In this document: positions 3,368 through 63,973 of the stretch, piece after piece
How the letters are laid out: each line of letters begins with the position of its first letter
Numbering within the stretch: position 1 is the first letter of the stretch
Origin: Candidatus Falkowbacteria bacterium
GTDB lineage: Bacteria > Patescibacteriota > Patescibacteriia > Patescibacteriales > UBA12465
DNA length: 64,000 nucleotides
Assembly: GCA_037137655.1 (NCBI GenBank)
Contig: JBAXJX010000001.1
Span: forward strand, 225,188-289,187
Direction: 5' to 3'
Program-made: the position numbers and the translations under genes
Notes under the pieces: generated by a model
Told to the model about the DNA's origin: nothing
Databases searched by the model: none
Seen by the model: the letters and a program-made list of their open reading frames with translations, nothing else

Positions 3368-4423
3368 TTATTCGGCGCCACCGACTTGGATTGTTTGACC
3401 TCGTTTAATGGCGCTGAGCATATCGTCGATGTCACCATCTAAAATAGTATTAATGTTGTGCCAAGAAGTATTGATGCGATGATCAGTGATTCTGTCTTGA
3501 GGGAAGTTATAAGTTCTAATTTTGTCGCTGCGATCGCCACCACCAACTTGGCTTTTGCGTGCTTCGGAGTCAGCGGCTAATTTCTCATCTTCGATTTTAG
3601 CTAAAATGCGAGAACGTAAAACTTGCATCGCTTTTTCTTTATTTTGATGTTGGGATTTTTGGTCTTGGCAGGAAACAACAGTTCCAGTTGGGATGTGAGT
3701 TAAACGAATTGCAGAATAGGTGGTATTCACACATTGACCTCCTGGGCCACTGGAACAAAAAGTATCGACGCGAATATCGCTTGGTTTGATTTCTATATCA
3801 ACTTCTTCAGCTTCCGGTAAAACTACCACGGTTGAGGTGGAAGTGTGAATGCGGCCCTGTTTTTCGGTCTCAGGGACACGTTGGACACGATGAGTGCCAG
3901 CTTCATATTTTAATTTGCCGTAGGCACCAAGTCCTTTAATTTCAAAAATGATTTCTTTGTAGCCACCAATACCAATTGGGCTGGAATCAATTAAATCAAT
4001 CTTCCAACCTTGGCGCTCCGCGTAACGGGAATACATGCGGAAAAGATCGCCGGTAAACAGGGCAGCTTCATCACCGCCGGTGCCACCTCGAATTTCGATA
4101 ATCGTGTTTTTCTTGTCATTAGGATTGGCTGGTCGCAATTCTTCTTGAATATTGTCTTTTAGTTCAATGCGACGAGCTTTTAAATTTTCCAATTCATCGA
4201 GTGCCATCGCTTTGAATTCTGGATCGCTTTCAGTGGCGATAATTTCTTCGTTATTTTTAATATCATGAATAACTTTCTCCAATTCTAAAATCATCTCATA
4301 GGCAAGCTTGAGATTGGCGTGTTCTTTGGAAATTCTAGTGTATTCTTTCATATCGGCCGTCACATTCGGGTCGGATAACTTTTTTTCCAAGTCTTGAAAT
4401 TTGATTTTTATTTCTTCGTACAT
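3368..4423 (-). CDS. prfA: peptide chain release factor 1
   Basis: GGQ motif ([11 protein letters not shown]), an RF1-type P-x-T tripeptide (PET), full length and no frameshift. Confidence 0.95.
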
Positions 4424-4795: not shown

Positions 4796-4937
4796 AAAAA
4801 AAATAAGGTTTTAAATCCATTAAGAGGACTTCAATCCATTTATAAATTATTAATCTTTAATTTGTAGTAAAAGGCTATCATATATTTAAAAATTGCGCAA
4901 GTCCAGGGCGGGAAATAGCTAAAAATGCCAGATGCCG

Positions 4938-4973
4938 TAAAAAGAAAAGAGGACCCGATGTTTTGGGTCCTCT
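4938..4973 (-). terminator. intrinsic terminator of orphan ORF 4980..5558
   Basis: AGAGGACCC-8 nt-GGGTCCTCT hairpin (4948-4973), followed on the minus strand by CTTTTCTTTT. Confidence 0.7.
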
Positions 4974-4979
4974 AATAAT

Positions 4980-5558
4980 TTATTCCTTTATTTTTGATTT
5001 TAAATAGACTTCGAAGAAATCTTCGGCTTTAGAAAAGTCTAAACCGATATGTTCTTCAAAGAAAATTAAAAAATCTTTATCAAAGCCATCTTCCATTCTT
5101 TTCTTATGAACATCATCGTGATGGTCGGCAGAGTATGGTTTAATTACACCATCTTTAAAATGAAAATTAGTGCTTTCGTTAAAGAAAAACAGTTCTCCGT
5201 TTTCAATTTTGTATTTGAGCTTGGCCATGTGCATATAGATAGCTAGACTATATAATTGTTGTATATCAAGGCCAAATACCTTGATAAAAATGTCATACGG
5301 AGTGTAGCTATTGTAATCAAGGCAAAGTAAGCTGCTGCGCATAAGATTTGTGTAATAATCTCCACTATTTTCAAGATTGATATAACGCTCACCATTTTTC
5401 CATTCAGTGATTAATTTTGGTCCAAGTTGATCCCAGAGTTTTATAATTGGCTCTAAGAAATTGAGACTACCTTTGTCTAAATAAAACTTAGTTTTAATTT
5501 CTATTCTATAATAAATATGGGCCAAAAAAATTATCCAAATTTTTTGTTCAGTTTTCAT
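4980..5558 (-). CDS. hypothetical protein (orphan)
   Basis: 192-aa ORF bracketed by a near-consensus promoter (5610-5638) and a terminator (4938-4973). No recognisable domain. Confidence 0.6.
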   Translation of the reverse strand: MKTEQKIWIIFLAHIYYRIEIKTKFYLDKGSLNFLEPIIKLWDQLGPKLITEWKNGERYINLENSGDYYTNLMRSSLLCLDYNSYTPYDIFIKVFGLDIQQLYSLAIYMHMAKLKYKIENGELFFFNESTNFHFKDGVIKPYSADHHDDVHKKRMEDGFDKDFLIFFEEHIGLDFSKAEDFFEVYLKSKIKE

Positions 5559-5609
5559 GATTTATAAGTATTAAATTGTTAGGGAACTATATTTATTTTG
5601 ATAATGACA

Positions 5610-5638
5610 ATTGTATCACGTTTTTAGCAAAAAGTCAA
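5610..5638 (-). promoter_or_regulatory. promoter P1 (TTGACT-N17-TGaTACAAT family)
   Basis: Minus strand reads ttgactttttgctaaaaacgtgatacaat, with an extended -10 TG. By hand count it is 25/29 identical to P2 (12360-12388) and 23/29 to P3 (22530-22558). Confidence 0.6.
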
Positions 5639-5685
5639 TATATAGCGAGATAAGCCAGTGAAATCAGGGGTTTTTTACGCGCAAC

Positions 5686-5881
5686 CATCCCCGAGCCACC
5701 ACACCTGAAGCGGGCGAAGCTTTCTTGGAAAGGTTGAGCAAGCGCGAAATCTTTTCAAAAAGATTTGCACGCTTCACCCCACACAGTTAGCGGCATTCTA
5801 CCGAAGATTATTAAAAGGACTATTTTTTAATCTTTTTTAAAAGTTTCGACCAGCTTCGGATACGGTGGGCTCGGTGAGGGC
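5686..5881 (-). repeat. inverted-repeat element: ~85-nt block U1 (5768..5686, minus orientation) plus inverted half-copy H1 (5838-5881)
   Basis: Arms 5686-5725 and 5838-5881 are imperfect reverse complements around a ~112-nt spacer. U1 is ~80% identical by eye to block U2 at 12197-12283. Confidence 0.5.
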
Positions 5882-5890
5882 TTTTTCAGT

Positions 5891-5920
5891 AATAAAAAAG
5901 CTCATCACGAATGATGAGCT
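5891..5920 (-). terminator. intrinsic terminator of ORF 5942..6277
   Basis: AGCTCATCA-cgaa-TGATGAGCT hairpin (5899-5920) followed on the minus strand by TTTTTT (5898..5893). Confidence 0.75.
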
Positions 5921-5941
5921 TGGTAATAGATGAATATTTTT

Positions 5942-6277
5942 TTATTCAATTTCGCAGTTGATTGCACCACGTCTTAACTTGGTTGAATAATAAGCTTTTA
6001 CTTTTATTGCCAATATTCCTTTCTTATTAGCCTTGCTTCTAATATCAGGGGTTAGATTTAGATTGAGAAAAATTTTAGTATCAACAAGGAAGTTAATATT
6101 CCAACATTGACCACTTCCATCTTCTGGTGAGATACCTTGCATTATTGCTGGTAATGTCATTTGTCTGCCATTATCTTCAATAATAAAATTAACTACTCTT
6201 TTTTCGGTAAAAAGGCGTAAACCATCAAATAATTCTTCTCTTGAAGGACCATTTGCAATTAGAATTGTGTTTGACAT
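5942..6277 (-). CDS. hypothetical protein (orphan)
   Basis: 111-aa ORF with its own promoter (6376-6404), a ~90-nt leader and a terminator. No recognisable domain. Confidence 0.6.
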   Translation of the reverse strand: MSNTILIANGPSREELFDGLRLFTEKRVVNFIIEDNGRQMTLPAIMQGISPEDGSGQCWNINFLVDTKIFLNLNLTPDIRSKANKKGILAIKVKAYYSTKLRRGAINCEIE

Positions 6278-6375
6278 CGTACAATGTTTTAAAGAACTCT
6301 CTAATTATTATATCAGGGATTAGGGAATACCCTGGAGCCGAAAGGCAATCTTTCCGTACGAAAAGAACTAAGGCG

Positions 6376-8354: not shown

Positions 8355-9080
8355 ATGCGTGGAATTATTTTATCAGGTGGAAATGGAACTCGTTTGCTCC
8401 CGTGCACCAAGGTAACCTCAAAACAACTTTTGCCGATTTATAATCGACCAATGATTTATTATCCGCTTAACACCTTGATTAAGGCAGGGATTAAAGAAAT
8501 TTTAATTATTGTTTCACCGCGGAACTCGGGTGATTATTTGAATTTGCTCGGTAGTGGTCGAGAATTTGGTGTGAAGTTTACTTATGAAATTCAAGATAAG
8601 GCCGATGGCTTGGCTCAAGCTTTCATTATTGGTGAAAATTTTATCGACAATGAGGACGTTTGTATGATTTTAGGTGACAATATTTATGAAGATGATTTTT
8701 CCGAGGAAATAAAAAGTTTTAAAGGTGGCGCAAAAATTTTCGCGACACCCGTGAAAGATCCAGAGCGTTTCGGTGTGGTGGAATTTGATGAACAAATGAA
8801 TGCGATTTCCATTGAAGAAAAACCGGAGAAACCAAAATCAAATTATTGTGTTACTGGTTTATATATTTATGATCACCGTGTCGTGGAGATTGCTAAAAAT
8901 TTACAAGCATCGGAGCGCGGTGAATTGGAAATTACTGATGTGAATCGTTGGTACTTAGAGCGCGGTGAATTGGAAGTAGCGAAGTTTAAGGGGGAATGGA
9001 TTGATGCTGGAACTTTTGAAAGTTTTGCGGCGGCGCAGGAATTGGCGCGCACCAAGTTACAAGATAAAATGGTAATTTAA
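8355..9080 (+). CDS. sugar-1-phosphate nucleotidyltransferase, short RmlA-like form (paralog 1)
   Basis: GGNGTRLLPCT..SKQLLPIYNRPMIYYPL signature of the glucose-1-P thymidylyl/uridylyltransferase family. At 241 aa it is shorter than classical RmlA. Confidence 0.8.
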   Translation: MRGIILSGGNGTRLLPCTKVTSKQLLPIYNRPMIYYPLNTLIKAGIKEILIIVSPRNSGDYLNLLGSGREFGVKFTYEIQDKADGLAQAFIIGENFIDNEDVCMILGDNIYEDDFSEEIKSFKGGAKIFATPVKDPERFGVVEFDEQMNAISIEEKPEKPKSNYCVTGLYIYDHRVVEIAKNLQASERGELEITDVNRWYLERGELEVAKFKGEWIDAGTFESFAAAQELARTKLQDKMVI

Positions 9081-9095
9081 TTATAATAAAAAACT

Positions 9096-9821
9096 ATGCG
9101 TGGAATTATTTTGTCAGCTGGAAATGGAACTCGTCTTCGTCCTTGCACGAAAGTGACTTCCAAAAATCTTTTACCGGTTTATAATCGACCTTTGATTTAT
9201 TATCCACTTAACACTTTGATTAAGGCGGGAATTACGGAAATTTTAATTATTGTTTCGGCGCGTCATGCGGGTGATTATTTAAATTTACTTGGTAGCGGTA
9301 AAGAATTTGGCGTGAAGTTTACTTATGAGATTCAAGACAAGGCTGATGGTATCGCCCAATCTTTTATCATTGGGGAAAATTTTATTGACCAAGAAGATGT
9401 TTGTTTAATTTTGGGTGATAATATTTTTGAAGATGACTTTGCTAAACAAATAAAAAGTTTTAAGAGCGGGGCGAAAATTTTTGCAACACCTGTGAAGGAC
9501 CCAGAACGTTTTGGTATTGTTGAGGTGGATGATAAAAATAATGCTGTTTCAATTGAGGAGAAGCCAGCTAAGCCAAAATCAAATTTGTGTGTGACCGGAC
9601 TTTATGTTTATGACCATCGAGTGGTGGATATTGCTAAAAATTTAAAACCATCAAAACGAGGCGAACTAGAAATTACGGATATAAATAAATGGTATTTAAA
9701 AAAGAAAGAATTGGAAGTAGCAAAATTTAAAGGCGCCTGGATTGATGCCGGAACTTTTGATAGTTTGGTGGAGGCCCAAGTGTTAGCTAAAAAGAAATTA
9801 CACAAAACAATGACAATATAA
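9096..9821 (+). CDS. sugar-1-phosphate nucleotidyltransferase, short RmlA-like form (paralog 2)
   Basis: Same length as, and roughly 80% aa identical (hand count) to, the gene at 8355..9080. Intact ORF. Confidence 0.8.
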   Translation: MRGIILSAGNGTRLRPCTKVTSKNLLPVYNRPLIYYPLNTLIKAGITEILIIVSARHAGDYLNLLGSGKEFGVKFTYEIQDKADGIAQSFIIGENFIDQEDVCLILGDNIFEDDFAKQIKSFKSGAKIFATPVKDPERFGIVEVDDKNNAVSIEEKPAKPKSNLCVTGLYVYDHRVVDIAKNLKPSKRGELEITDINKWYLKKKELEVAKFKGAWIDAGTFDSLVEAQVLAKKKLHKTMTI

Positions 9822-11750: not shown

Positions 11751-11759
11751 AATTTTGTT

Positions 11760-11788
11760 TGTCATTCCCGTGTAGACGGGAATCCAGG
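11760..11788 (-). repeat. REP-like palindromic element, copy 1
   Basis: Minus strand reads CCTGGATTCCCGtctacaCGGGAATGACA (7-bp stem), ending 9 nt before the rnhB ATG at 11750. Confidence 0.6.
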
Positions 11789-12196
11789 AGTTTATACTTT
11801 AATCATAGCTCATTAATGATTTTTTCTAAAGCCCCCTTGAAAATTTTAAACTTAAAATTTAAAGCCTCTTATGAAATATCGCCCCTGAAGCGAGTCGAGA
11901 CTTTTTACGGGAAATGTAGCCGCTAGGCGAATTTCGCGGAAAAAGGGCTCGATCGATTCGCCCAAGATATTAAAATCACAAAAGAAAGTGGAGTCTCAAG
12001 ACGAAGCGAAATTACAAGTATTAGATTATAAAAATTGACGTGACCGAAGACTAAGAAGACGGTTATTTATTAATATAAAAACAAAATAGCGCTCTTAATA
12101 ATCTCCGGTATCCTCTCTTAGAACTTTTATTACTATACCAATCACTCCACTTAAGTTCCGTTTACTTCATAGCTCTTTTAAGCCTGGGTGAATCTG

Positions 12197-12283
12197 GCAA
12201 AGCTTTTGAAAAAAGATTTCGCTCTTCGCTCAACCTTTTTTAAAAGCTTCGCCAGCTTCGGGATACGTTGGCTCGGTGAGGGC
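12197..12283 (+). repeat. conserved ~85-nt block U2 (homolog of U1 at 5768..5686)
   Basis: gcaaagcttttgaaaaaagatttcgctcttcgctcaaccttttttaaaagcttcgccagcttcgggatacgttggctcggtgaggg aligns with the reverse complement of 5686-5768. Its 3' half is ~88% identical by eye to 5838-5881. Confidence 0.5.
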
Positions 12284-12359
12284 CGCGTGTGAAAATGCCG
12301 GTTTTATTAGCTTATTTGGCTAATTACAGCCGCGTGTCCGCTTAGCGGGCTATACGCGG

Positions 12360-12388
12360 TTGACTTTTTGCAGTAAATGTGATACAAT
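12360..12388 (+). promoter_or_regulatory. promoter P2 (TTGACT-N17-TGaTACAAT family)
   Basis: ttgactttttgcagtaaatgtgatacaat, 48 nt upstream of the ATG at 12436. Confidence 0.6.
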
Positions 12389-12435
12389 GTTTAAATATAA
12401 AAATAGTAATTTAATAATTCAAAAGGCATATAGTC

Positions 12436-12657
12436 ATGGCAAAGAAAAGTAAAATTCTTGGAGTTTCGGAAATTTTATATGATGAAAACGGTCAACAAAT
12501 AGCATCTATTTGCAGATCAACCAAACCATCATCCGCAAAACAAATTATCAGAGAAATGACTAAAGCTGGATATTGTCCAGTCGGTGTATCTGATTTTTGT
12601 AAAATATCTGAAACATTAAAAAATGGCGGTCAGGTATTAATCGCTTCTAAAAAATAA
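12436..12657 (+). CDS. hypothetical small protein (orphan)
   Basis: 73-aa ORF between promoter P2 and a terminator (12663-12701). No recognisable domain. Confidence 0.5.
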   Translation: MAKKSKILGVSEILYDENGQQIASICRSTKPSSAKQIIREMTKAGYCPVGVSDFCKISETLKNGGQVLIASKK

Positions 12658-12662
12658 ATCTC

Positions 12663-12701
12663 AGACCTTGGTTTGCTAACGCATTCCATGGTCTTTTTTT
12701 A
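12663..12701 (+). terminator. intrinsic terminator
   Basis: AGACCTTGG-14 nt-CCATGGTCT stem with one mismatch, followed by TTTTTTT. Confidence 0.6.
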
Positions 12702-13027: not shown

Positions 13028-13731
13028 AAAAGTTAAGTTATAAAAATTTAGAAGCCGACATGATGGCCTTGGCTAATCCGACAAAAGCTAAATTATTGTC
13101 CGGATTTTTTAAAACTGGACCAGGGCAATATGGCGAGGGCGATATTTTTTTAGGAATAACCGTGCCCCAAACGAGAGAAATGTCTAAAAAATACACCGAA
13201 TTAGATTTGTCTAATTTACAGAAATTGTTAAATTCCAAAATTCACGAAATTAGATTGTGCGCTTTGTTGGTCTTGGTGAAAAAATATAAAATCGGAAATG
13301 AAGCTGAGAAAAAAGCAATTGCCGAATTTTATTTGGCCAATGCGAAGAATATTAACAATTGGGATTTGGTAGATTTAACGGCTCCAAAAATATTCGGTGA
13401 ATATTTAATCGGCAAGCCACACAAAGTTCTTTATGATTTGGTGAAATCAGATAATTTATGGGAGCGCCGCATCGCGGTTTTAAGCACCTTTACTTTTATC
13501 CGGGAGAAAGATTTTGCTGATATCATGAAATTGGCCGAAAAATTATTGAATGACAAGCATGATTTAATGCACAAGGCGGTTGGTTGGATGTTGCGGGAAA
13601 TGGGCAAGCGTGATAAAAATAGTTTAGTTCAATTTTTAAATTTACATTATAAAAACATGCCGCGCACCATGTTGCGCTATGCGATTGAAAAGTTTGATAA
13701 CGAAGAGAGACTTAAATATTTAAAGAAATAA
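13024..13731 (+). CDS. DNA alkylation repair protein (AlkD/AlkC-like HEAT-repeat)
   Basis: Family-typical blocks FFKTGPGQYGEGDIFLGI, NNWDLVD, WERRIAVLSTF and HKAVGWMLRE. Confidence 0.75.
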   Translation: MKKLSYKNLEADMMALANPTKAKLLSGFFKTGPGQYGEGDIFLGITVPQTREMSKKYTELDLSNLQKLLNSKIHEIRLCALLVLVKKYKIGNEAEKKAIAEFYLANAKNINNWDLVDLTAPKIFGEYLIGKPHKVLYDLVKSDNLWERRIAVLSTFTFIREKDFADIMKLAEKLLNDKHDLMHKAVGWMLREMGKRDKNSLVQFLNLHYKNMPRTMLRYAIEKFDNEERLKYLKK

Positions 13732-13735
13732 TTGT

Positions 13736-14746
13736 ATGGAAAATTTCCCAGATTTAAACAATAATGAAGTGCCAAAATTACCAGGACTAAAAGTCGTTGG
13801 TAAGATTAATTTGCCGGAAAACACTCGTCGTTTTTCTAAAAAAATTGAAGGCCGTGATTCCTTGCGTGAAAAATTGGATTTATGTTTGAATAAAATGGCT
13901 ACTAAAACTAATGTGAAATTTCCAGAATTTTTACGGGATGATGCGCGTATTAATATGTTAAGCGATGACTATTATTATCATGATAAAACTAAAGATTTAG
14001 CCACCATTCAATATCTTGAAACAACTTTTGCTGCCGGTCAGGATTTTTATGATTGGAATAAAAAAAGAGAGGAAAGTAATGGTATTTTAGTGGAGAAGGC
14101 AATTACGGTTTTATTAGATAAGGTTTTGGGTGCTGATTTTATTGTAACTCGCACTAGCTTGTATGATGATTACCGTCACGGAGTTGATAATTTATTAATT
14201 GATAAGGCGACTGGGGCGGCGATTTGCGGTTTTGATGAAGTGCAAGTAGCTAACATTGAAGAGTCGGATAAAAATGAGGAAATAAAGAAGCATAAGATTT
14301 TGGAAAATAATGACAAATACAATGGCACTTTTGTGAAATATGGCGCCACTATTCGCGACGGTGAGTTTAAACGCTGTTCACTGCACAATGTCCCGACTTT
14401 TTTCTTGTCATTGTCAGAAAATGATTTAGCGGAAATTGCGGCTGACTTAGAGCATGAAGCAGTTTCTGATAAGGAACGCAGCGTTTTGTTGCGGATGATT
14501 GCTTCCATGGAAAAACAAATGATTGAAATTTATGGTGAACATAGCACGCTCGATAATGATTGGCGCGCCGAAAGATTGGAGCTTAAAAAGCGCTTAGAAT
14601 TACTCTCGGTTCGATATGGAGTGACTGGTTGGAGTCGAACACCGGAAGGTTTAACTTTGAAGAAGGAGTTGGGTATTAATAAGTTGCGTCTTAATTTGAA
14701 TAATTTTAAAGAATCACTTAAGACTATTAAGAAAAAAGTGCAATAA
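13736..14746 (+). CDS. hypothetical protein
   Basis: 336-aa ORF in an operon-like position. No recognisable domain. Confidence 0.6.
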   Translation: MENFPDLNNNEVPKLPGLKVVGKINLPENTRRFSKKIEGRDSLREKLDLCLNKMATKTNVKFPEFLRDDARINMLSDDYYYHDKTKDLATIQYLETTFAAGQDFYDWNKKREESNGILVEKAITVLLDKVLGADFIVTRTSLYDDYRHGVDNLLIDKATGAAICGFDEVQVANIEESDKNEEIKKHKILENNDKYNGTFVKYGATIRDGEFKRCSLHNVPTFFLSLSENDLAEIAADLEHEAVSDKERSVLLRMIASMEKQMIEIYGEHSTLDNDWRAERLELKKRLELLSVRYGVTGWSRTPEGLTLKKELGINKLRLNLNNFKESLKTIKKKVQ

Positions 14747-21598: not shown

Positions 21599-22441
21599 TT
21601 ATTTCCCCAATTTCTTCTGACTCTGCGGTTCATCTAAATAATTATCACGACTAATTACTTTTTTACCAATACGTTTTTCTAGCTCCTTTCGGGCATGGCC
21701 AGCAATATTACCACCTTTCTTGGCAACCTGGCGATTCTCTGTAAAAGTTTCCGGTTGTTCCACTTCGGATATTTTGGTGGTTGAGACCTCAGCTAACATA
21801 TTTAAAACTAACTCTAAATTAGTCATGTTGTCGCGCAGACTTTCTTTCTTTAAGTTTTTTAAATCTTTATAATCTTTGATTTTTAATCCCGCCCAAGCAA
21901 AAGTAATATCATCGGTTAAAATAGCAAATTCATTGACAGTTTTTATTCCCCGATTAACCCACTCATTAGTTAAATCTTTTCTAATCTCAATACCCTTTAA
22001 CCTTAAATTAACCCATTCCGGGGAATAGCCTTTTTTAAGATAAGTATTTAACGATCTTTGAATAGCTAATTCCGGATCATGTACTTCTTCCACTCGTTCA
22101 TAGCCAACTCGCGCCAACCACAGCTTAAATGGCTCAGCGTTGGGTGAGGGAATTGATTGAATTAAACGAAAGATGGTTTCGGTGTCGGCCATGTCGGTTA
22201 AATAAAATTTTCCGTCAGATGCTTGCATTTTCAGTTGGTCACATTTTGTGACGACCTCACTCCCCTCGGTTTTTAGACGATTTTTTAAAGTCGTCCAGTA
22301 ACTTTGTGACTTTTTATGATCCGCTTGATGAATTAGTGCACCAACCACATCCACCACCGAAAAATACCATTTTTCTTGTTTTTCATCCCAAAGTCGACGG
22401 ATTTTGTGATCGGAGAAAAAAGCTAATTTTTTAGAGTCCAT
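21599..22441 (-). CDS. Bro-N / DinD-like (DNA-damage-inducible protein D family) protein
   Basis: FFSDHKIRRLWDEKQEKWYFSVVDVVGAL.. is a Bro-N-type N-domain, and the rest resembles DinD. Start moved to 22441 (MDSKK; alternative 22453) because the track extension runs over promoter P3. Confidence 0.65.
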   Translation of the reverse strand: MDSKKLAFFSDHKIRRLWDEKQEKWYFSVVDVVGALIHQADHKKSQSYWTTLKNRLKTEGSEVVTKCDQLKMQASDGKFYLTDMADTETIFRLIQSIPSPNAEPFKLWLARVGYERVEEVHDPELAIQRSLNTYLKKGYSPEWVNLRLKGIEIRKDLTNEWVNRGIKTVNEFAILTDDITFAWAGLKIKDYKDLKNLKKESLRDNMTNLELVLNMLAEVSTTKISEVEQPETFTENRQVAKKGGNIAGHARKELEKRIGKKVISRDNYLDEPQSQKKLGK

Positions 22442-22529
22442 AATTATATTCATTAATTGTAAATGATTATAATTATGCCAAAAGCGAGATAAATTTTTTA
22501 TAAACAAAAAATGACAAAAATCGCTAGTA

Positions 22530-22558
22530 TTGACTTTTTGGCTAAAGTGTGCTACAAT
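22530..22558 (+). promoter_or_regulatory. promoter P3 (TTGACT-N17-TGcTACAAT family) of the DGR target gene
   Basis: ttgactttttggctaaagtgtgctacaat, with the upstream tcgcta..tattgac also shared with P1. Confidence 0.6.
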
Positions 22559-22641
22559 TGGTTTATTAATCAAAGAGTGATTAATCCTCAATCTTCCGGG
22601 AAGTGAAGAAACGTTTTTTTACAACAAAAATACTTATTGTC

Positions 22642-23301
22642 ATGGCACAAAAATTTAATGTCACCGGCGACCAACATTTCGGACTTACAGGACAAATGCT
22701 CGAAATTCAACGTCAAATTCGTCTAAACGGCGGTAGTCCAATCAATCCAGAATTAGTTAAAATTGCTTTACAAAATATTATTGAAGGCAAATTTAATACT
22801 TCTGAATCTCCGATTAAAAATTATATTCTCCGTCCATTAATTTTGGATGAAACTATGCTTATCGAAGATATTGTTAATAGCGAAGTAAGTATTGCCAAAG
22901 CTAAAGCTACCTTCAAATCGCATATCGACGACAATTTTAAAAATTGGGGACTCGATAAGTCAAGTGTTGATACTGCAGAAATTAACGTCAAACCATTTGA
23001 GCTAATCGCTAATGCTAAGTTCGCTGAAATATTTACTTCATTTTCTAACGATTTAGACGAGTTGTGTTTTACTCAAGCGCAAATTATTCGCTTCTGTGAA
23101 AAATACCCACGTCAACTTCGTCAAGATGGCAATGCTAACTTTTTCTTAATGAAAGAGAATGATGAATATTTCGTGGTTAGCGTGGGCGTGGGTTCCGGCG
23201 GCCTCGGCGTGCATGTCCGTCGTTTCGACAGTGGCAATGTCTGGGATGCTGCGTACTTGCATGGCGTTTTCGTTCCGGCAACTTGTACCTTGAAAGCTTA
23301 G
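22642..23301 (+). CDS. DGR variable (target) protein
   Basis: The C-terminal ~38 codons are the VR. ATG at 22642 (MAQKFNV) preferred over GTG at 22603. No signal peptide or TM segment seen, and the N-terminal domain is unrecognised. Confidence 0.85.
   Translation: MAQKFNVTGDQHFGLTGQMLEIQRQIRLNGGSPINPELVKIALQNIIEGKFNTSESPIKNYILRPLILDETMLIEDIVNSEVSIAKAKATFKSHIDDNFKNWGLDKSSVDTAEINVKPFELIANAKFAEIFTSFSNDLDELCFTQAQIIRFCEKYPRQLRQDGNANFFLMKENDEYFVVSVGVGSGGLGVHVRRFDSGNVWDAAYLHGVFVPATCTLKA
23169..23284 (+). repeat. DGR variable repeat (VR)
   Basis: Gap-free alignment to 23608-23723 at offset 439, with 15 mismatches at TR adenines and one C/G mismatch (VR 23263 G versus TR 23702 C). Confidence 0.85.
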
Positions 23302-23325
23302 TCTTTTGAAACTTTATTCCTTGGT

Positions 23326-23373
23326 CCCTTGGATTTTTAGAACTTAATGTTCTTGAAATTCGAGGGATTTTTT
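23326..23373 (+). terminator. long hairpin plus T-run downstream of VR (target-gene terminator)
   Basis: CCCTTGGATTTTTAGAAC-ttaat-GTTCTTGAAATTCGAGGG, 18 stem positions with 1 mismatch and 3 G-U pairs, followed by ATTTTTT. Confidence 0.6.
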
Positions 23374-23607
23374 ATTATAATAAAACTGTAGTTTTGGATA
23401 ATTCGTCGGTCATGGCTGGCGGGTCAAAACTATTTAAAAATATTTTCGAGATTTTCATCGGTTACGGCTAATGAAAGAGGGAAAGTATTTTTAACAAAAA
23501 AACATAAGTTGGTATGGAGTGCTGGCGGACTTTTAAGTCTCGAATAATATTCAGCCATTTCTTTTTTTGGTCAGAGTGGCGGTGATTCTTGATGGCATTT
23601 CATATAG

Positions 23608-23723
23608 TTTCGTGGTTAACGTGAACGTGAATTCCGACGGCCTCAACGTGAATGTCAATCGTTTCGACAATGACAATATCTGGAATGCTGCGTACTTGCA
23701 TCGCGTTTTCGTTCCGGCAACTT
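23608..23723 (+). repeat. DGR template repeat (TR)
   Basis: Non-coding copy of the VR, rich in AAC/AAT codons in the VR frame (9 AAY). 26 adenines by hand count. Homology may extend weakly to 23730. Confidence 0.85.
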
Positions 23724-24108
23724 ACAAATTTCTCCCTCGCTCACGCGGGGGAGTTTTGTTTTCCAAACCTTTTTTCCATCCGCCCAACATGCGCCCGATT
23801 TCATCCAGTTTTTCCGATAGCTCGGAATATTTTACATTGGCCACACATTTATTTTCCCAAGCTAGTTGCAGAAAAAATTTGAGACTGTCGAGTTTTAAAA
23901 TCGCGAGTGATAATTGGTTTGACTTTTTGTCACCAGCGAGATAAATTGTAATGAAAATATTTTCCAGAAGTGCTAGAAAATTTGTTTCAATTTTCCCGCC
24001 CAAATTATAGCGATAGACTTTGGGAAAATCAGCCAGCAACCCAAACCAAAAACTATAAGCTTCTTTGGCCTTTAATAGCACGACCGGTGAAGAGATACTT
24101 GTGCTCAT
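23722..24108 (-). CDS. avd: Avd-like accessory variability determinant (four-helix bundle)
   Basis: LAGDKKSNQLSLAILKLDSLKFFLQLAWE...LSEKLDEIGRMLGGWKK parallels Bordetella phage Avd as I recall it (VAGKSNQVSKLYAADAGLAMLRFWLRFLA...AEVGRILGSWI). Encoded opposite to TR and RT. Confidence 0.8.
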   Translation of the reverse strand: MSTSISSPVVLLKAKEAYSFWFGLLADFPKVYRYNLGGKIETNFLALLENIFITIYLAGDKKSNQLSLAILKLDSLKFFLQLAWENKCVANVKYSELSEKLDEIGRMLGGWKKGLENKTPPRERGRNL

Positions 24109-24116
24109 AAAGATAA

Positions 24117-25112
24117 ATGAAAAAATTTACTAAAACTTATCAAGAAATTATGACTGTGCCGAATTTACTTCGAGCTTGGGAAGAATTTTTGTCCGGTAAG
24201 AAAAAACGGCGCGATGTGCTTATTTTTCAAGGTCAGTTAATGAATAATATTCTGGCGCTTTTTTATAGTTTGAAATCCAAAACTTATTGCCACGCCGGTT
24301 ATCAAGCTTTTAAAATTTCCGACCCAAAACCGCGCGATATTCATAAGGCGACGGTGCGTGATCGTTTGCTCCATCATCTGCTCTATCAAGAAATGTACGA
24401 TTATTTTGATCGGCAATTTATTAATGATTCTTATTCTTGTCGTTTTAATAAAGGCACGCATCGAGCGATTTATCGTTTGGCGGAATTTGCCGGCCGCGTT
24501 TCTGTAAATAATAGAAAAACAGTCTGGATTTTGAAATGTGATATTCGAAAATTTTTTGCCAGTATTGATCATAAAGTTTTAAAAAATATTTTAGCCAGAT
24601 ATATTCTTGATCAAGATTTGTTGTGGTTATTCGGACAAGTAATTGATAGTTTTAATACGACCGATAAAATTGGCGTCGGCTTGCCACTCGGAAATTTAAC
24701 TTCACAACTTTTAGTTAATGTTTATATGAACGAATTTGATCAATTTGTGAAACGGGATTTAAAAGTTAAATATTATATTCGTTATGCCGATGATTTTGTT
24801 TTTTTAAGTCCGGATAAAAATTACTTAATTAATTTGCGCTCGCAACTGGATAAGTTCTTGAACGATGAACTAAAATTAACGATGCATCCCAAAAAAGTTT
24901 TTCTGACTACTTTGAATAGCGGAGTTGATTTCTTGGGTTGGGTAAATTTTACTGATCATCGGGTTTTGCGCACTAAAACTAAACGCCGAATGTTGGTCAG
25001 GATTACTAAAAGCAATAAATTGGCGACGCGAGCAGCTTATGCAGCGATGTTGAAACATGGTAATGCTTATAAATTAAGTCAAAGAGCGAAATTGATTAAC
25101 AAAGAACAATAG
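24117..25112 (+). CDS. DGR reverse transcriptase
   Basis: RT domain blocks (PRDIHKATVRDRLLHH, SYSCRFNKGTH, DIRKFFASIDH, LPLGNLTSQLLVNVYMNEFD, YIRYADDFVF). The GxxxSQ motif is DGR-type rather than retron or group II intron. Confidence 0.9.
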   Translation: MKKFTKTYQEIMTVPNLLRAWEEFLSGKKKRRDVLIFQGQLMNNILALFYSLKSKTYCHAGYQAFKISDPKPRDIHKATVRDRLLHHLLYQEMYDYFDRQFINDSYSCRFNKGTHRAIYRLAEFAGRVSVNNRKTVWILKCDIRKFFASIDHKVLKNILARYILDQDLLWLFGQVIDSFNTTDKIGVGLPLGNLTSQLLVNVYMNEFDQFVKRDLKVKYYIRYADDFVFLSPDKNYLINLRSQLDKFLNDELKLTMHPKKVFLTTLNSGVDFLGWVNFTDHRVLRTKTKRRMLVRITKSNKLATRAAYAAMLKHGNAYKLSQRAKLINKEQ

Positions 25113-52148: not shown

Positions 52149-52177
52149 TTGACATAAGTAGTTTCTTGTGGTATAAT
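52149..52177 (+). promoter_or_regulatory. consensus sigma70 promoter
   Basis: TTGACA (52149-52154)-N17-TGgTATAAT (-10 at 52172-52177). Confidence 0.65.
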
Positions 52178-52630: not shown

Positions 52631-52666
52631 AAGCCATGTTATTTAAGATAACATGGCTTTTTTATT
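52631..52666 (+). terminator. intrinsic terminator
   Basis: AAGCCATGTTAT-ttaa-GATAACATGGCTT followed by TTTTAT. Confidence 0.7.
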
Positions 52667-52673
52667 TGTTATA

Positions 52674-52702
52674 TTGACACAATTAGTATTATATTGTAGA
52701 GT
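52674..52702 (+). promoter_or_regulatory. candidate promoter
   Basis: TTGACA (52674-52679)-N17-TAGAGT. Confidence 0.4.
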
Positions 52703-53447: not shown

Positions 53448-53456
53448 TTTCTTTAA

Positions 53457-53490
53457 AGCCACCTTACTTAATGTAACGTGGCTTTTTTAT
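53457..53490 (+). terminator. intrinsic terminator
   Basis: AGCCAC-15 nt-GTGGCT followed by TTTTTAT. Confidence 0.65.
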
Positions 53491-53498
53491 TTGGTCAC

Positions 53499-53527
53499 TT
53501 GACATAAATCCGCCCATCTATTATAAT
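53499..53527 (+). promoter_or_regulatory. consensus sigma70 promoter for rplJL
   Basis: TTGACA (53499-53504)-N17-TATAAT (53522-53527). Confidence 0.65.
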
Positions 53528-63894: not shown

Positions 63895-63902
63895 GTCTGG
63901 TG

Positions 63903-63934
63903 GTCCTGTTTTTTAAATAAAACAGGGCTTTTTT
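63903..63934 (+). terminator. intrinsic terminator
   Basis: CCTGTTTT-ttaaat-AAAACAGG followed by GCTTTTTT. Confidence 0.7.
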
Positions 63935-63944
63935 ATTTGTCTTA

Positions 63945-63973
63945 TTGACAAATATCTTTAATTATGATATCAT
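63945..63973 (+). promoter_or_regulatory. sigma70-type promoter at the window edge
   Basis: TTGACA (63945-63950)-N17-TGaTATCAT (-10 at 63968-63973). An ATG follows at 63981. Confidence 0.5.

Follow-up and report, generated by a model that had tools for sequence, protein, structure and literature searches.

Probable reuse of an intergenic promoter module upstream of two unrelated orphan genes, with a similar promoter core at a retroelement target gene, in a Candidatus Falkowbacteria genome

The window analyzed here is a stretch of 64,000 nt from a metagenome-assembled genome of Candidatus Falkowbacteria (Candidate Phyla Radiation), in which two orphan genes, encoding proteins of 192 aa (WCK37_01075) and 73 aa (WCK37_01115), are preceded by homologous intergenic DNA comprising an inverted pair of palindromic blocks, here called U, and a sigma-70-type promoter (P1 and P2, respectively). 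A third promoter of similar sequence, P3, lies upstream of WCK37_01175, the target gene of a diversity-generating retroelement (DGR), and all three genes are located on a 965-kb contig. The features of the two orphan loci, referred to below as locus 5 and locus 12, are as follows.

4948–4973, scored on both strands: terminator hairpin closing the 192-aa unit
4980–5558, minus strand: 192-aa gene WCK37_01075, without family assignment in Pfam, PHROG and PADLOC scans
5559–5609, minus strand: 5′ untranslated region (5′UTR) of the 192-aa gene; nhmmer and alignment show homology with the P2 leader and with leaders of the relative L051
5610–5638, minus strand: P1, sigma-70-type TTGACT-N17-TACAAT with a TG extended −10 (pattern and promoter scan)
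5639–5664, minus strand: linker joining U5a to P1, aligning as a homolog of that at locus 12
5665–5779, minus strand: U5a, the block U next to P1 (covariance model 116.8 bits; 77% global identity to U12; G+C 52%)
5791–5900, plus strand: U5b, third U copy, inverted and head-to-head with U5a (covariance model 90.5 bits; G+C 37%)
5898–5921, minus strand: intrinsic terminator of the upstream 111-aa gene, a 10-bp stem followed by a T-run, at the upstream edge of the locus-5 module
11836–11963, minus strand: U11, probable degenerate fourth U copy and inverted partner of U12 (covariance model 20.3 bits, E 0.0036)
12083–12110, plus strand: 28-nt stretch, 86% identical to 5826–5799 in the 5′ part of U5b (BLAST)
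12186–12300, plus strand: U12 (G+C 50%; internal palindrome 12190–12259)
12282–12359, plus strand: linker with a tandem duplication (unit A 12282–12328, unit B 12329–12359)
12360–12388, plus strand: P2 (pattern and promoter scan)
12389–12435, plus strand: 5′UTR of the 73-aa gene (alignment, nhmmer)
12436–12657, plus strand: 73-aa orphan gene WCK37_01115, without Pfam or PADLOC match
12664–12701, plus strand: terminator of the 73-aa unit, with loop TTGCTAACGC (from sequence)

A preliminary description of this DNA had noted by eye a match of about 80% between 12197–12283 and the reverse complement of 5686–5768. This match is real and far above the level of shuffled sequence, with 68 of 88 positions identical (77%) and an alignment score of 43, compared with −14.3 ± 4.8 in 500 shuffles; BLAST lengthens it to 12186–12322 against 5779–5643 (75% over 140 nt, E 4e-21). 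The homology had further been said to continue through the linker into the promoter, which is borne out by a MAFFT alignment, where it runs on via linker, promoter and 5′UTR up to both ATGs; the promoter-leader part by itself (5638–5538 against 12360–12456) is 70% identical over 102 nt. Approximately 20 nt inside the ORFs (open reading frames) of both loci the DNA homology dies out. What the two orphan genes have in common is an upstream module of about 290–380 nt, placed before unrelated coding sequences. There are two full copies of the module, 6.7 kb apart and in opposite orientation, and both loci share the order inverted U, U, linker, promoter, leader, ORF and terminator.

At each locus, an inverted pair of U copies is located upstream of the promoter. 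The pair at locus 5 (5665–5900) forms one long foldback (z = −3.4), and the pair at locus 12 makes up a 465-nt unit. U5b was found both by BLAST, which aligns 5829–5881 with 12232–12283 in the 3′ half of U12 (89% over 54 nt), and by nhmmer (5802–5892, E 1e-16); it is less similar to the adjacent U5a (59% overall) than to U12 (89%, 3′ half). The covariance model was trained on these three copies, with U11 outside the training set; the further evidence for U11 is its 60% identity to U5a (score 13, versus 2.8 ± 1.6 for shuffles), which supports it weakly, and an nhmmer hit with an E value of only 1.9. The stretch 11850–12000, within the 670-nt intergenic region between rnhB and the 73-aa orphan, is relatively GC-rich and hairpin-filled and overlaps U11. 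The promoter-proximal U is the GC-richest intergenic DNA, with a G+C content of 0.55–0.59 in 80-nt windows versus 0.29–0.49 elsewhere in the nine intergenic regions. The flanks of the U pairs contain short A-runs only (gAAAAAg/tAAAAAAc and gAAAAt/tttAAA), which are uninformative in AT-rich DNA.

Past the end of U, the −35 element starts after 26 nt at locus 5 and after 60 nt at locus 12. The locus-12 linker carries a local duplication, with GCCGCGTGT present at both 12282 and 12329, and its unit B (12329–12359) is a nested palindrome, CCGCGTgtCCGCttaGCGGgctatACGCGG, that abuts the −35 element of P2, as had been described; this unit is extra sequence compared with locus 5, where the alignment has a gap.

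U is non-coding. Small ORFs within it (34 aa at 12188–12292; 31 and 37 aa at 5675–5777) were considered and rejected: owing to indels, the copies do not keep the same frame, and the DNA alone is conserved. Nor does U terminate the upstream 111-aa gene, whose own terminator is located at 5921–5898. That the region upstream of U12 might be a decayed remnant of this gene was also considered, and neither tblastn nor blastn gave a signal. The preliminary description had called U a structured block, a label that the analysis does not support, and no evidence of a conserved RNA structure in U was seen. The minimum-energy folds of U12 and U5a differ; the three-copy consensus hairpin is simply the internal palindrome, with 10 of its 27 pairs broken in one copy and an unfavorable, penalizing covariation term of +1.01. 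Rfam has nothing at the gathering threshold in the whole window, and at E values up to 10 gives only spurious, miRNA-like (microRNA-like) hairpin noise at the two loci. Because U is located upstream of the −35 elements, it lies outside the P1 and P2 transcripts.

The same genome was scanned for U over 83 kb of its ~965 kb (the window plus 19 kb of additional flank, L138/L139). The preliminary description had allowed that U might occur at two loci only and have no conserved structure, and this is what was found in everything searched. None of 80 HisRS-syntenic loci from related bacteria contains U (histidyl-tRNA synthetase; ~0.93 Mb, by nhmmer and covariance model), and it is also absent upstream of homologs of the 192-aa gene. 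A U pattern scan of the GTDB representatives gave 28 matches, all of them single chance matches without wider similarity and mostly in GC-rich genomes (G+C 0.46–0.72), a stricter pattern gave 0 matches in JGI metagenomes, and viral contigs gave 1 chance match to the U pattern and 13 unrelated matches to the promoter pattern.

The closest available relative, L051 (HisRS 85% identical, 75–83% nucleotide synteny), does not contain U by nhmmer or covariance model, and carries different genes at both positions. Slot 1, between L31 and the dTDP-glucose dehydratase gene (window 4904–6375, L051 6678–7243), holds one unrelated 157-aa gene in L051, and the 111-aa gene, the module and the 192-aa gene in the window. 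Slot 2, between the RNase HII and DNA-alkylation-repair genes (window 11755–12694, L051 12520–15762), holds a 220-aa gene and three paralogous membrane proteins in L051, and U11, U12, P2, the 73-aa gene and Smr in the window. Judging from this comparison, both loci are replacement hot spots, or variable gene slots. The restriction of the module to this lineage, and its placement in slots where the close relative has other genes, fit a module that was moved or copied. Parts of it are nonetheless present in L051, where the promoter plus leader occurs twice without U, before unrelated membrane proteins of 218 and 211 aa; the leader matches, at 13600–13653 and 14355–14426 (nhmmer E 1e-16 and 3.5e-9), read nearly the same (AAAATAAAGTTCCTAAACAATTTAATAC), and the −35 region reads TTGACACTCTGC, with TTGACA and without the T-run of the window promoters. 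The TTGCTAACGC loop of the terminator after the 73-aa gene is also common to the terminator after the 220-aa gene of L051. The promoter, leader and terminator modules are thus common to the two genomes, with different genes between them.

Both loci are embedded among housekeeping genes, with prmC, prfA and L31 as neighbors, dTDP-sugar genes, hisS (HisRS) and rnhB (RNase HII) also nearby, and Smr, DNA-alkylation repair, CysRS and Dus genes as further neighbors; the two orphan units are kept apart by rfb genes, hisS and rnhB. The window has a G+C content of 28–40% and is densely coding, with only nine gaps of at least 120 nt between long ORFs. Pfam searches of the scanned ORFs, together with precomputed Pfam lists for the remaining genes, revealed no transposase or recombinase in the window; integrases and Y1 transposases are likewise absent from it. 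Two further observations were made in this region. A glucose-1-phosphate thymidylyltransferase-like gene is tandemly duplicated (8355–9080 and 9096–9821, 83% nucleotide identity), and is single-copy in L051. Directly beside the RNase HII start, at 11761–11786, is a small hairpin repeat, GTCATTCCC(G)-N-(C)GGGAATC, which is present in 3–4 copies in the same intergenic region of L051 (12530–12680); it is a separate family, similar to repetitive extragenic palindromic (REP) sequences.

Each orphan unit is self-contained, with its own promoter, ORF and intrinsic terminator. The three genes downstream of P1, P2 and P3 had been described as unrelated, and BLASTP finds no similarity among their proteins. 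The 73-aa protein has itself as the sole match among 5.8 billion proteins, and neither orphan protein has a significant PHROG match; a phage collection gave no DNA or protein match. The 192-aa protein has 11 homologs (42–100% identity) in varied contexts, once beside a tRNA, and a confident AlphaFold model (pLDDT 86, pTM 0.87), for which Foldseek finds nothing similar in the PDB; the protein was not assigned to any family of Pfam, PHROG or PADLOC. Its homologs in other genomes have their own TTGACA promoters and no U.

The third promoter belongs to the DGR, for which the relevant features are as follows.

22521–22574, plus strand: P3 (22530–22558) with its flanks, 78% identical to P1 over 55 nt, at the conserved position of the DGR-target promoter
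22642–23301, plus strand: DGR target gene with its variable repeat (VR, 23169–23284), assigned by the repeat shared between VR and template repeat (TR) and by homologs beside bAvd and reverse transcriptase (RT)
23919–23947, plus strand: fourth exact occurrence of TTGACTTTTTG, within avd in antisense orientation and 170 nt before the RT start (pattern scan)

The 29-nt promoters are identical at 25 positions between P1 and P2 and at 23 between P3 and either of them, exactly as in the preliminary description, and the common pattern that it proposed, TTGACTTTTTGN8GTGNTACAAT, has three exact matches in the window, where 0.02 would be expected with up to 3 mismatches allowed; the promoters at 52149 and 53499 lack the spacer, as it had stated. 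In local alignments of 65-nt windows, P1–P2, P1–P3 and P2–P3 score 26, 25 and 19, and are the top three of the 91 promoter pairs of the window (mean 9.8, sd 3.7). The exact 11-mer TTGACTTTTTG occurs four times in the window, versus 0.13 expected, and not at all in ~1 Mb of sequence from relatives. Its fourth occurrence was considered as an RT promoter of the same family and rejected, being composed of conserved avd codons (relatives read GATTTCTTTTC and similar) and probably coincidental. The house promoter consensus of the window and its relatives is TTGACA-N14-(T)GnTAtAAT, and the 23/29 identity on the 29-mer alone is also attained by unrelated TTGACA promoters of different genomes. The suspicion, voiced in the preliminary description itself, that the shared spacer might be just this consensus is therefore justified in part: the (G)TGnTAnAAT portion belongs to the house consensus, since other strong promoters carry it, whereas TTGACTTTTTG and the flanks are distinctive. 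The distinctive features are the TTGACT followed by TTTTG, the TACAAT followed by TG, and about 10 nt upstream of the −35, where P1 and P3 have the flank TCGCTA..TA in common.

A second recurring intergenic module, observed at 52631–52682, 53456–53507 and 63902–63953, consists of a terminator hairpin, TTTTTTATTTG and N5-TTGACA; the three copies have different stems, with the same T-run and promoter spacing, which suggests that the junction of terminator and promoter is stereotyped, or reused, in this genome.

The DGR is real, comprising the target gene, VR, TR (23608–23723, 86% identical to VR), bAvd (23722–24108, minus strand) and RT (24117–25112, plus strand), the last two assigned by Pfam. 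Its link to the module is thin. P3 has about 45–55 nt in common with P1 and P2, and no U; BLAST aligns P3 with P1 at 83% over 42 nt (E 1e-7, in a small pairwise search). Ordinary TTGACA promoters are found at the position of P3 in DGR-target homologs of five other genomes, and the place that P3 occupies matches that of the TTGACA promoters in L131, L133, L135 and L137. In its distal part the leader of the target is conserved in L133 and L131, in contrast to the promoter. Neither U nor TTGACTTTTTG is present in the relatives' DGR loci L133, L135 and L137 or at the target homolog L131, and U and the module have no match in the DGR region 23100–23800 containing TR and VR. The idea of a mobile or co-regulated cassette survives in part: the evidence fits a module that was moved or copied, and the P3 core takes part in two of the three best promoter pairs. 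The proposed link between the orphans and the DGR is not supported: only the short core is present at P3, and relatives manage with TTGACA promoters. The simplest reading is that, in this lineage, P1-type sequence came to occupy the promoter core of the DGR target, by conversion or by replacement, although the divergence is too high for proof.

Some other features of the DGR region were noted. The start codons of avd and RT are divergent and 8 nt apart, with the same layout in L133 and L135, and therefore the promoter of each must lie within the coding sequence of the other. The leader of the DGR target (22585–22641) contains the motif CCGGGAAGTG.AGAAA.GT.TTTTT..AACAA...ATTGTCATGGC, which is conserved in L133 (~4040–4100; protein 57% identical) and may be a 5′UTR element of the DGR-target family. 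Divergent from the target is a 280-aa Bro-N-domain protein (21599–22441, minus strand; PADLOC PDC-S13, E 2.8e-124; phrog_15286, E 6e-115), for which ATG 22441 is the likelier start, as initiation at the first-listed TTG (22591) would make the gene overlap P3. In the close relative (L131 246–722, contig Ga0265297_10000811), a shortened 158-aa homolog of the target occupies another genomic position, upstream of HIT-parA-parB-dnaE, has no RT or avd within 10 kb downstream, and may be an orphaned DGR target.

The best reading of the module is one of promoter capture or reuse, without a regulon or an RNA gene, and we consider it probable, by a modest measure, that an intergenic promoter module has been reused by local recombination before self-contained accessory genes. 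A lineage-specific, non-coding intergenic module would have been copied locally by recombination, presumably when a segment was duplicated, or through gene conversion, among intergenic regions close to each other. From 5′ to 3′ this module consists of an inverted pair of palindromic U blocks of ~100–115 nt, a short linker, a putatively strong sigma-70-type promoter and an A/T-rich leader; each full copy would drive one self-contained promoter-ORF-terminator unit, and a promoter core of ~45–55 nt occupies the conserved promoter position of the DGR target. Because U is upstream of the transcription start, its action, if any, would be at the DNA level, as a foldback or cruciform, an insulator or a protein-binding site. 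Local reuse is favored because all U and promoter copies lie within 18 kb, because the homology extends past U to the ATG, because the promoter plus leader occurs without U in L051, and because neither a mobilizing enzyme nor a target duplication was seen.

Several points weigh against this reading. The U search spanned the 83 kb given above, and a dispersed, genome-wide family could exist. Contigs of two independent Logan assemblies (SRR12676969 and SRR12676970; contigs L001, L002, L003, L139 and L140) end exactly at 5626, inside P1, or at 12238, inside U12, and such shared ends could reflect further identical copies elsewhere, or strain-level structural variants. The mosaic relationship of the U copies, with U5b closer to U12 than to U5a, fits an exchange among more copies than are visible. 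Finally, the activity of P1, P2 and P3 is predicted from consensus only, and the link to P3 comes down to the ~45–55 nt described above.

The main rival is that U is a non-autonomous foldback transposable element, of the miniature inverted-repeat transposable element (MITE), Correia or REPIN-like type, which carries or creates an outward promoter and was inserted independently upstream of both orphans by an enzyme encoded elsewhere in the genome; this is unlikely. The inverted U pairs (a foldback of ~190–236 nt at locus 5, z = −3.4, and the 465-nt unit at locus 12), the unusually high G+C content of the promoter-proximal U, its absence from the close relative, the assembly breaks seen within the module in two samples and the mosaic resemblance of the copies would all be expected of such an element. 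By contrast, the inter-locus homology does not stop at the end of U but extends through linker, promoter and leader to the ATG, so the promoter was not created at an element end; the promoter plus leader exists without U in L051; only two loci are seen, with none more in the 83 kb, ~1 Mb of relatives, the GTDB representatives or the JGI metagenomes; only A-runs flank U, with no clear target-site duplication visible; and the window has no transposase. A bolder version, in which U plus promoter is a still-active, lineage-specific foldback element that delivers promoters, powers new or de novo orphans and overwrote the native promoter of the DGR target, is decidedly improbable. If true, it would give the Candidate Phyla Radiation its first described MITE-like element that carries a promoter, the expression of the DGR target would be tied to that of the orphans, and the identical contig breaks and mosaic U similarity would point to further copies or ongoing exchange. 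Transcription of U from upstream as a small structured or cis-acting RNA (e.g. a double-stranded RNA hairpin processed by RNase III) is very unlikely. It would account for the locally high G+C content in an AT-rich genome, for folding z-scores of −2.7 to −3.5, and for a consensus hairpin common to three copies, in which both sides of 4 pairs have changed. This has to be set against the absence of an Rfam match, the differing folds, the unfavorable covariation and broken pairs, the occurrence of U in both orientations at one locus, its position between a terminator (5921–5898) and the next promoter with no conserved promoter ahead of it, and the failure of the covariance model to find a homolog in relatives.

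The remaining rivals concern the promoters. A common regulator or special sigma factor might read TTGACTTTTTG and the spacer, and/or the U palindromes, and so co-regulate the orphans with the DGR target. Such a regulon signature would explain why P1–P3 share positions outside the house consensus (T at −35 position 6, TTTTG, and the C of TACAAT) as well as the flanks TCGCTA..TA and TACAATTG, why the P1 spacer contains the near-palindrome TTTTTGCTAAAAA, and why the palindromic U is placed where activators bind. The likeness of P1 and P2 is, however, explained by descent, embedded as it is in 290–380 nt of homology; P3 has no U, relatives' DGR targets use ordinary TTGACA promoters, and no regulator gene is evident beside the loci. 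The L051 module reads TTGACA CTCTG, without the T-run, so that the T-run is better seen as a recent mutation that the promoters share than as a conserved operator. We regard this regulon as quite unlikely, and find no evidence for a DGR-specific regulon or for a structured RNA. Conversely, P3 might have converged on the house consensus, in which case the DGR link would be illusory and only the P1/P2 duplication real. In keeping with this, identities of 23/29 are also seen between unrelated promoters (e.g. window 63945 versus L048, and L048 versus L050), the extended −10 (T)GTGnTAnAAT is general, and the fourth TTGACTTTTTG, within constrained avd coding sequence, indicates that the 11-mer can arise without common descent. 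The P1–P3 pair nonetheless ranks second of the 91 (25, versus a mean of 9.8) over 65-nt windows, its BLAST match spans 42 nt, and ~1 Mb of relatives is devoid of the exact 11-mer, which makes convergence highly improbable.

Reuse of the promoter module by local recombination, as favored here, is a real and fairly ordinary case of promoter reuse, and does not reveal a new mechanism. Candidate Phyla Radiation bacteria cannot be grown alone, and to our knowledge almost nothing is known of their promoters and expression wiring. The locus offers a concrete example of how a compact genome equips lineage-specific orphans with expression signals, in that a ready-made set of promoter, leader and terminator recurs in variable slots and part of it seems to have reached a DGR target. 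It also yields a small set of candidate strong promoters, together with a house consensus, TTGACA-N14-TGnTAtAAT.

Among known systems, several bear a limited resemblance to the module. Integron cassettes form arrays with attC sites and an integrase, and are usually promoterless, whereas the units described here are separated by housekeeping genes, have their own promoters, and lie in a window without an integrase. Phage 'morons' are autonomous promoter-gene-terminator units, and the orphans resemble them in being self-contained between conserved genes, in slots that hold other genes in L051; they differ in being chromosomal, among housekeeping genes, with no phage context and no PHROG or phage-collection match found. 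Unlike a DGR component (TR, VR, initiation of mutagenic homing (IMH) site or accessory), U has no relation to TR or VR and no conserved association with DGRs, and unlike Rfam-type cis-regulatory or small RNAs, it has no covariance match and no favorable covariation, and lies outside the transcript. In the REPIN/RAYT system, inverted doublets of 20–25-nt REP sequences are associated with a RAYT (Y1 transposase) gene, whereas the U units are ~110 nt long and the window has no Y1 transposase.

Correia elements of Neisseria, and ERIC and REPIN-type elements, are described as short non-coding, intergenic elements with inverted repeats that can fold back and lend promoters to adjacent genes (PMC2649163, PMC3575422). 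The module is similar to MITE- and Correia-like elements in having inverted repeats that enclose a short core at both loci (U5b/U5a and U11/U12). In families of the Correia, ERIC and REPIN type, dispersed copies number in the tens to hundreds, the terminal inverted repeats are defined, target duplications are present, and the promoter is situated within the element or at its end. By contrast, the present module was seen at two loci in the 83 kb searched and has no clear target duplication, its promoter lies 26–60 nt past the end of U in co-duplicated sequence, and its U arms of ~110 nt are far longer than REP or Correia terminal repeats.

The closest concept is that of putative mobile promoters, or promoter reuse. 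These were described by Matus-Garcia, Nijveen and van Passel (2012) as closely similar upstream sequences before non-homologous genes of one genome, which correspond to no known insertion sequence (IS) or RNA family and for which a role in rewiring expression is proposed; the published cut-off, as summarized in PMC3575422, is an identity of 80% or more across 50 nt or more in the interval −150 to −50 of the start codon. The best segments in that interval are 27 nt at 85% for P1–P2 and 42 nt at 83% for P1–P3; farther upstream, segments of 51 nt at 90% (U12 versus U5b) and 111 nt at 77% are found. The module thus differs in its identity, 75–77% over 110–140 nt, which falls short of the published cut-off, and in adding a palindromic repeat pair upstream of the promoter. 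In concept it agrees with the putative mobile promoters, having similar upstream sequence before non-homologous coding sequences and no known RNA family or IS behind it.

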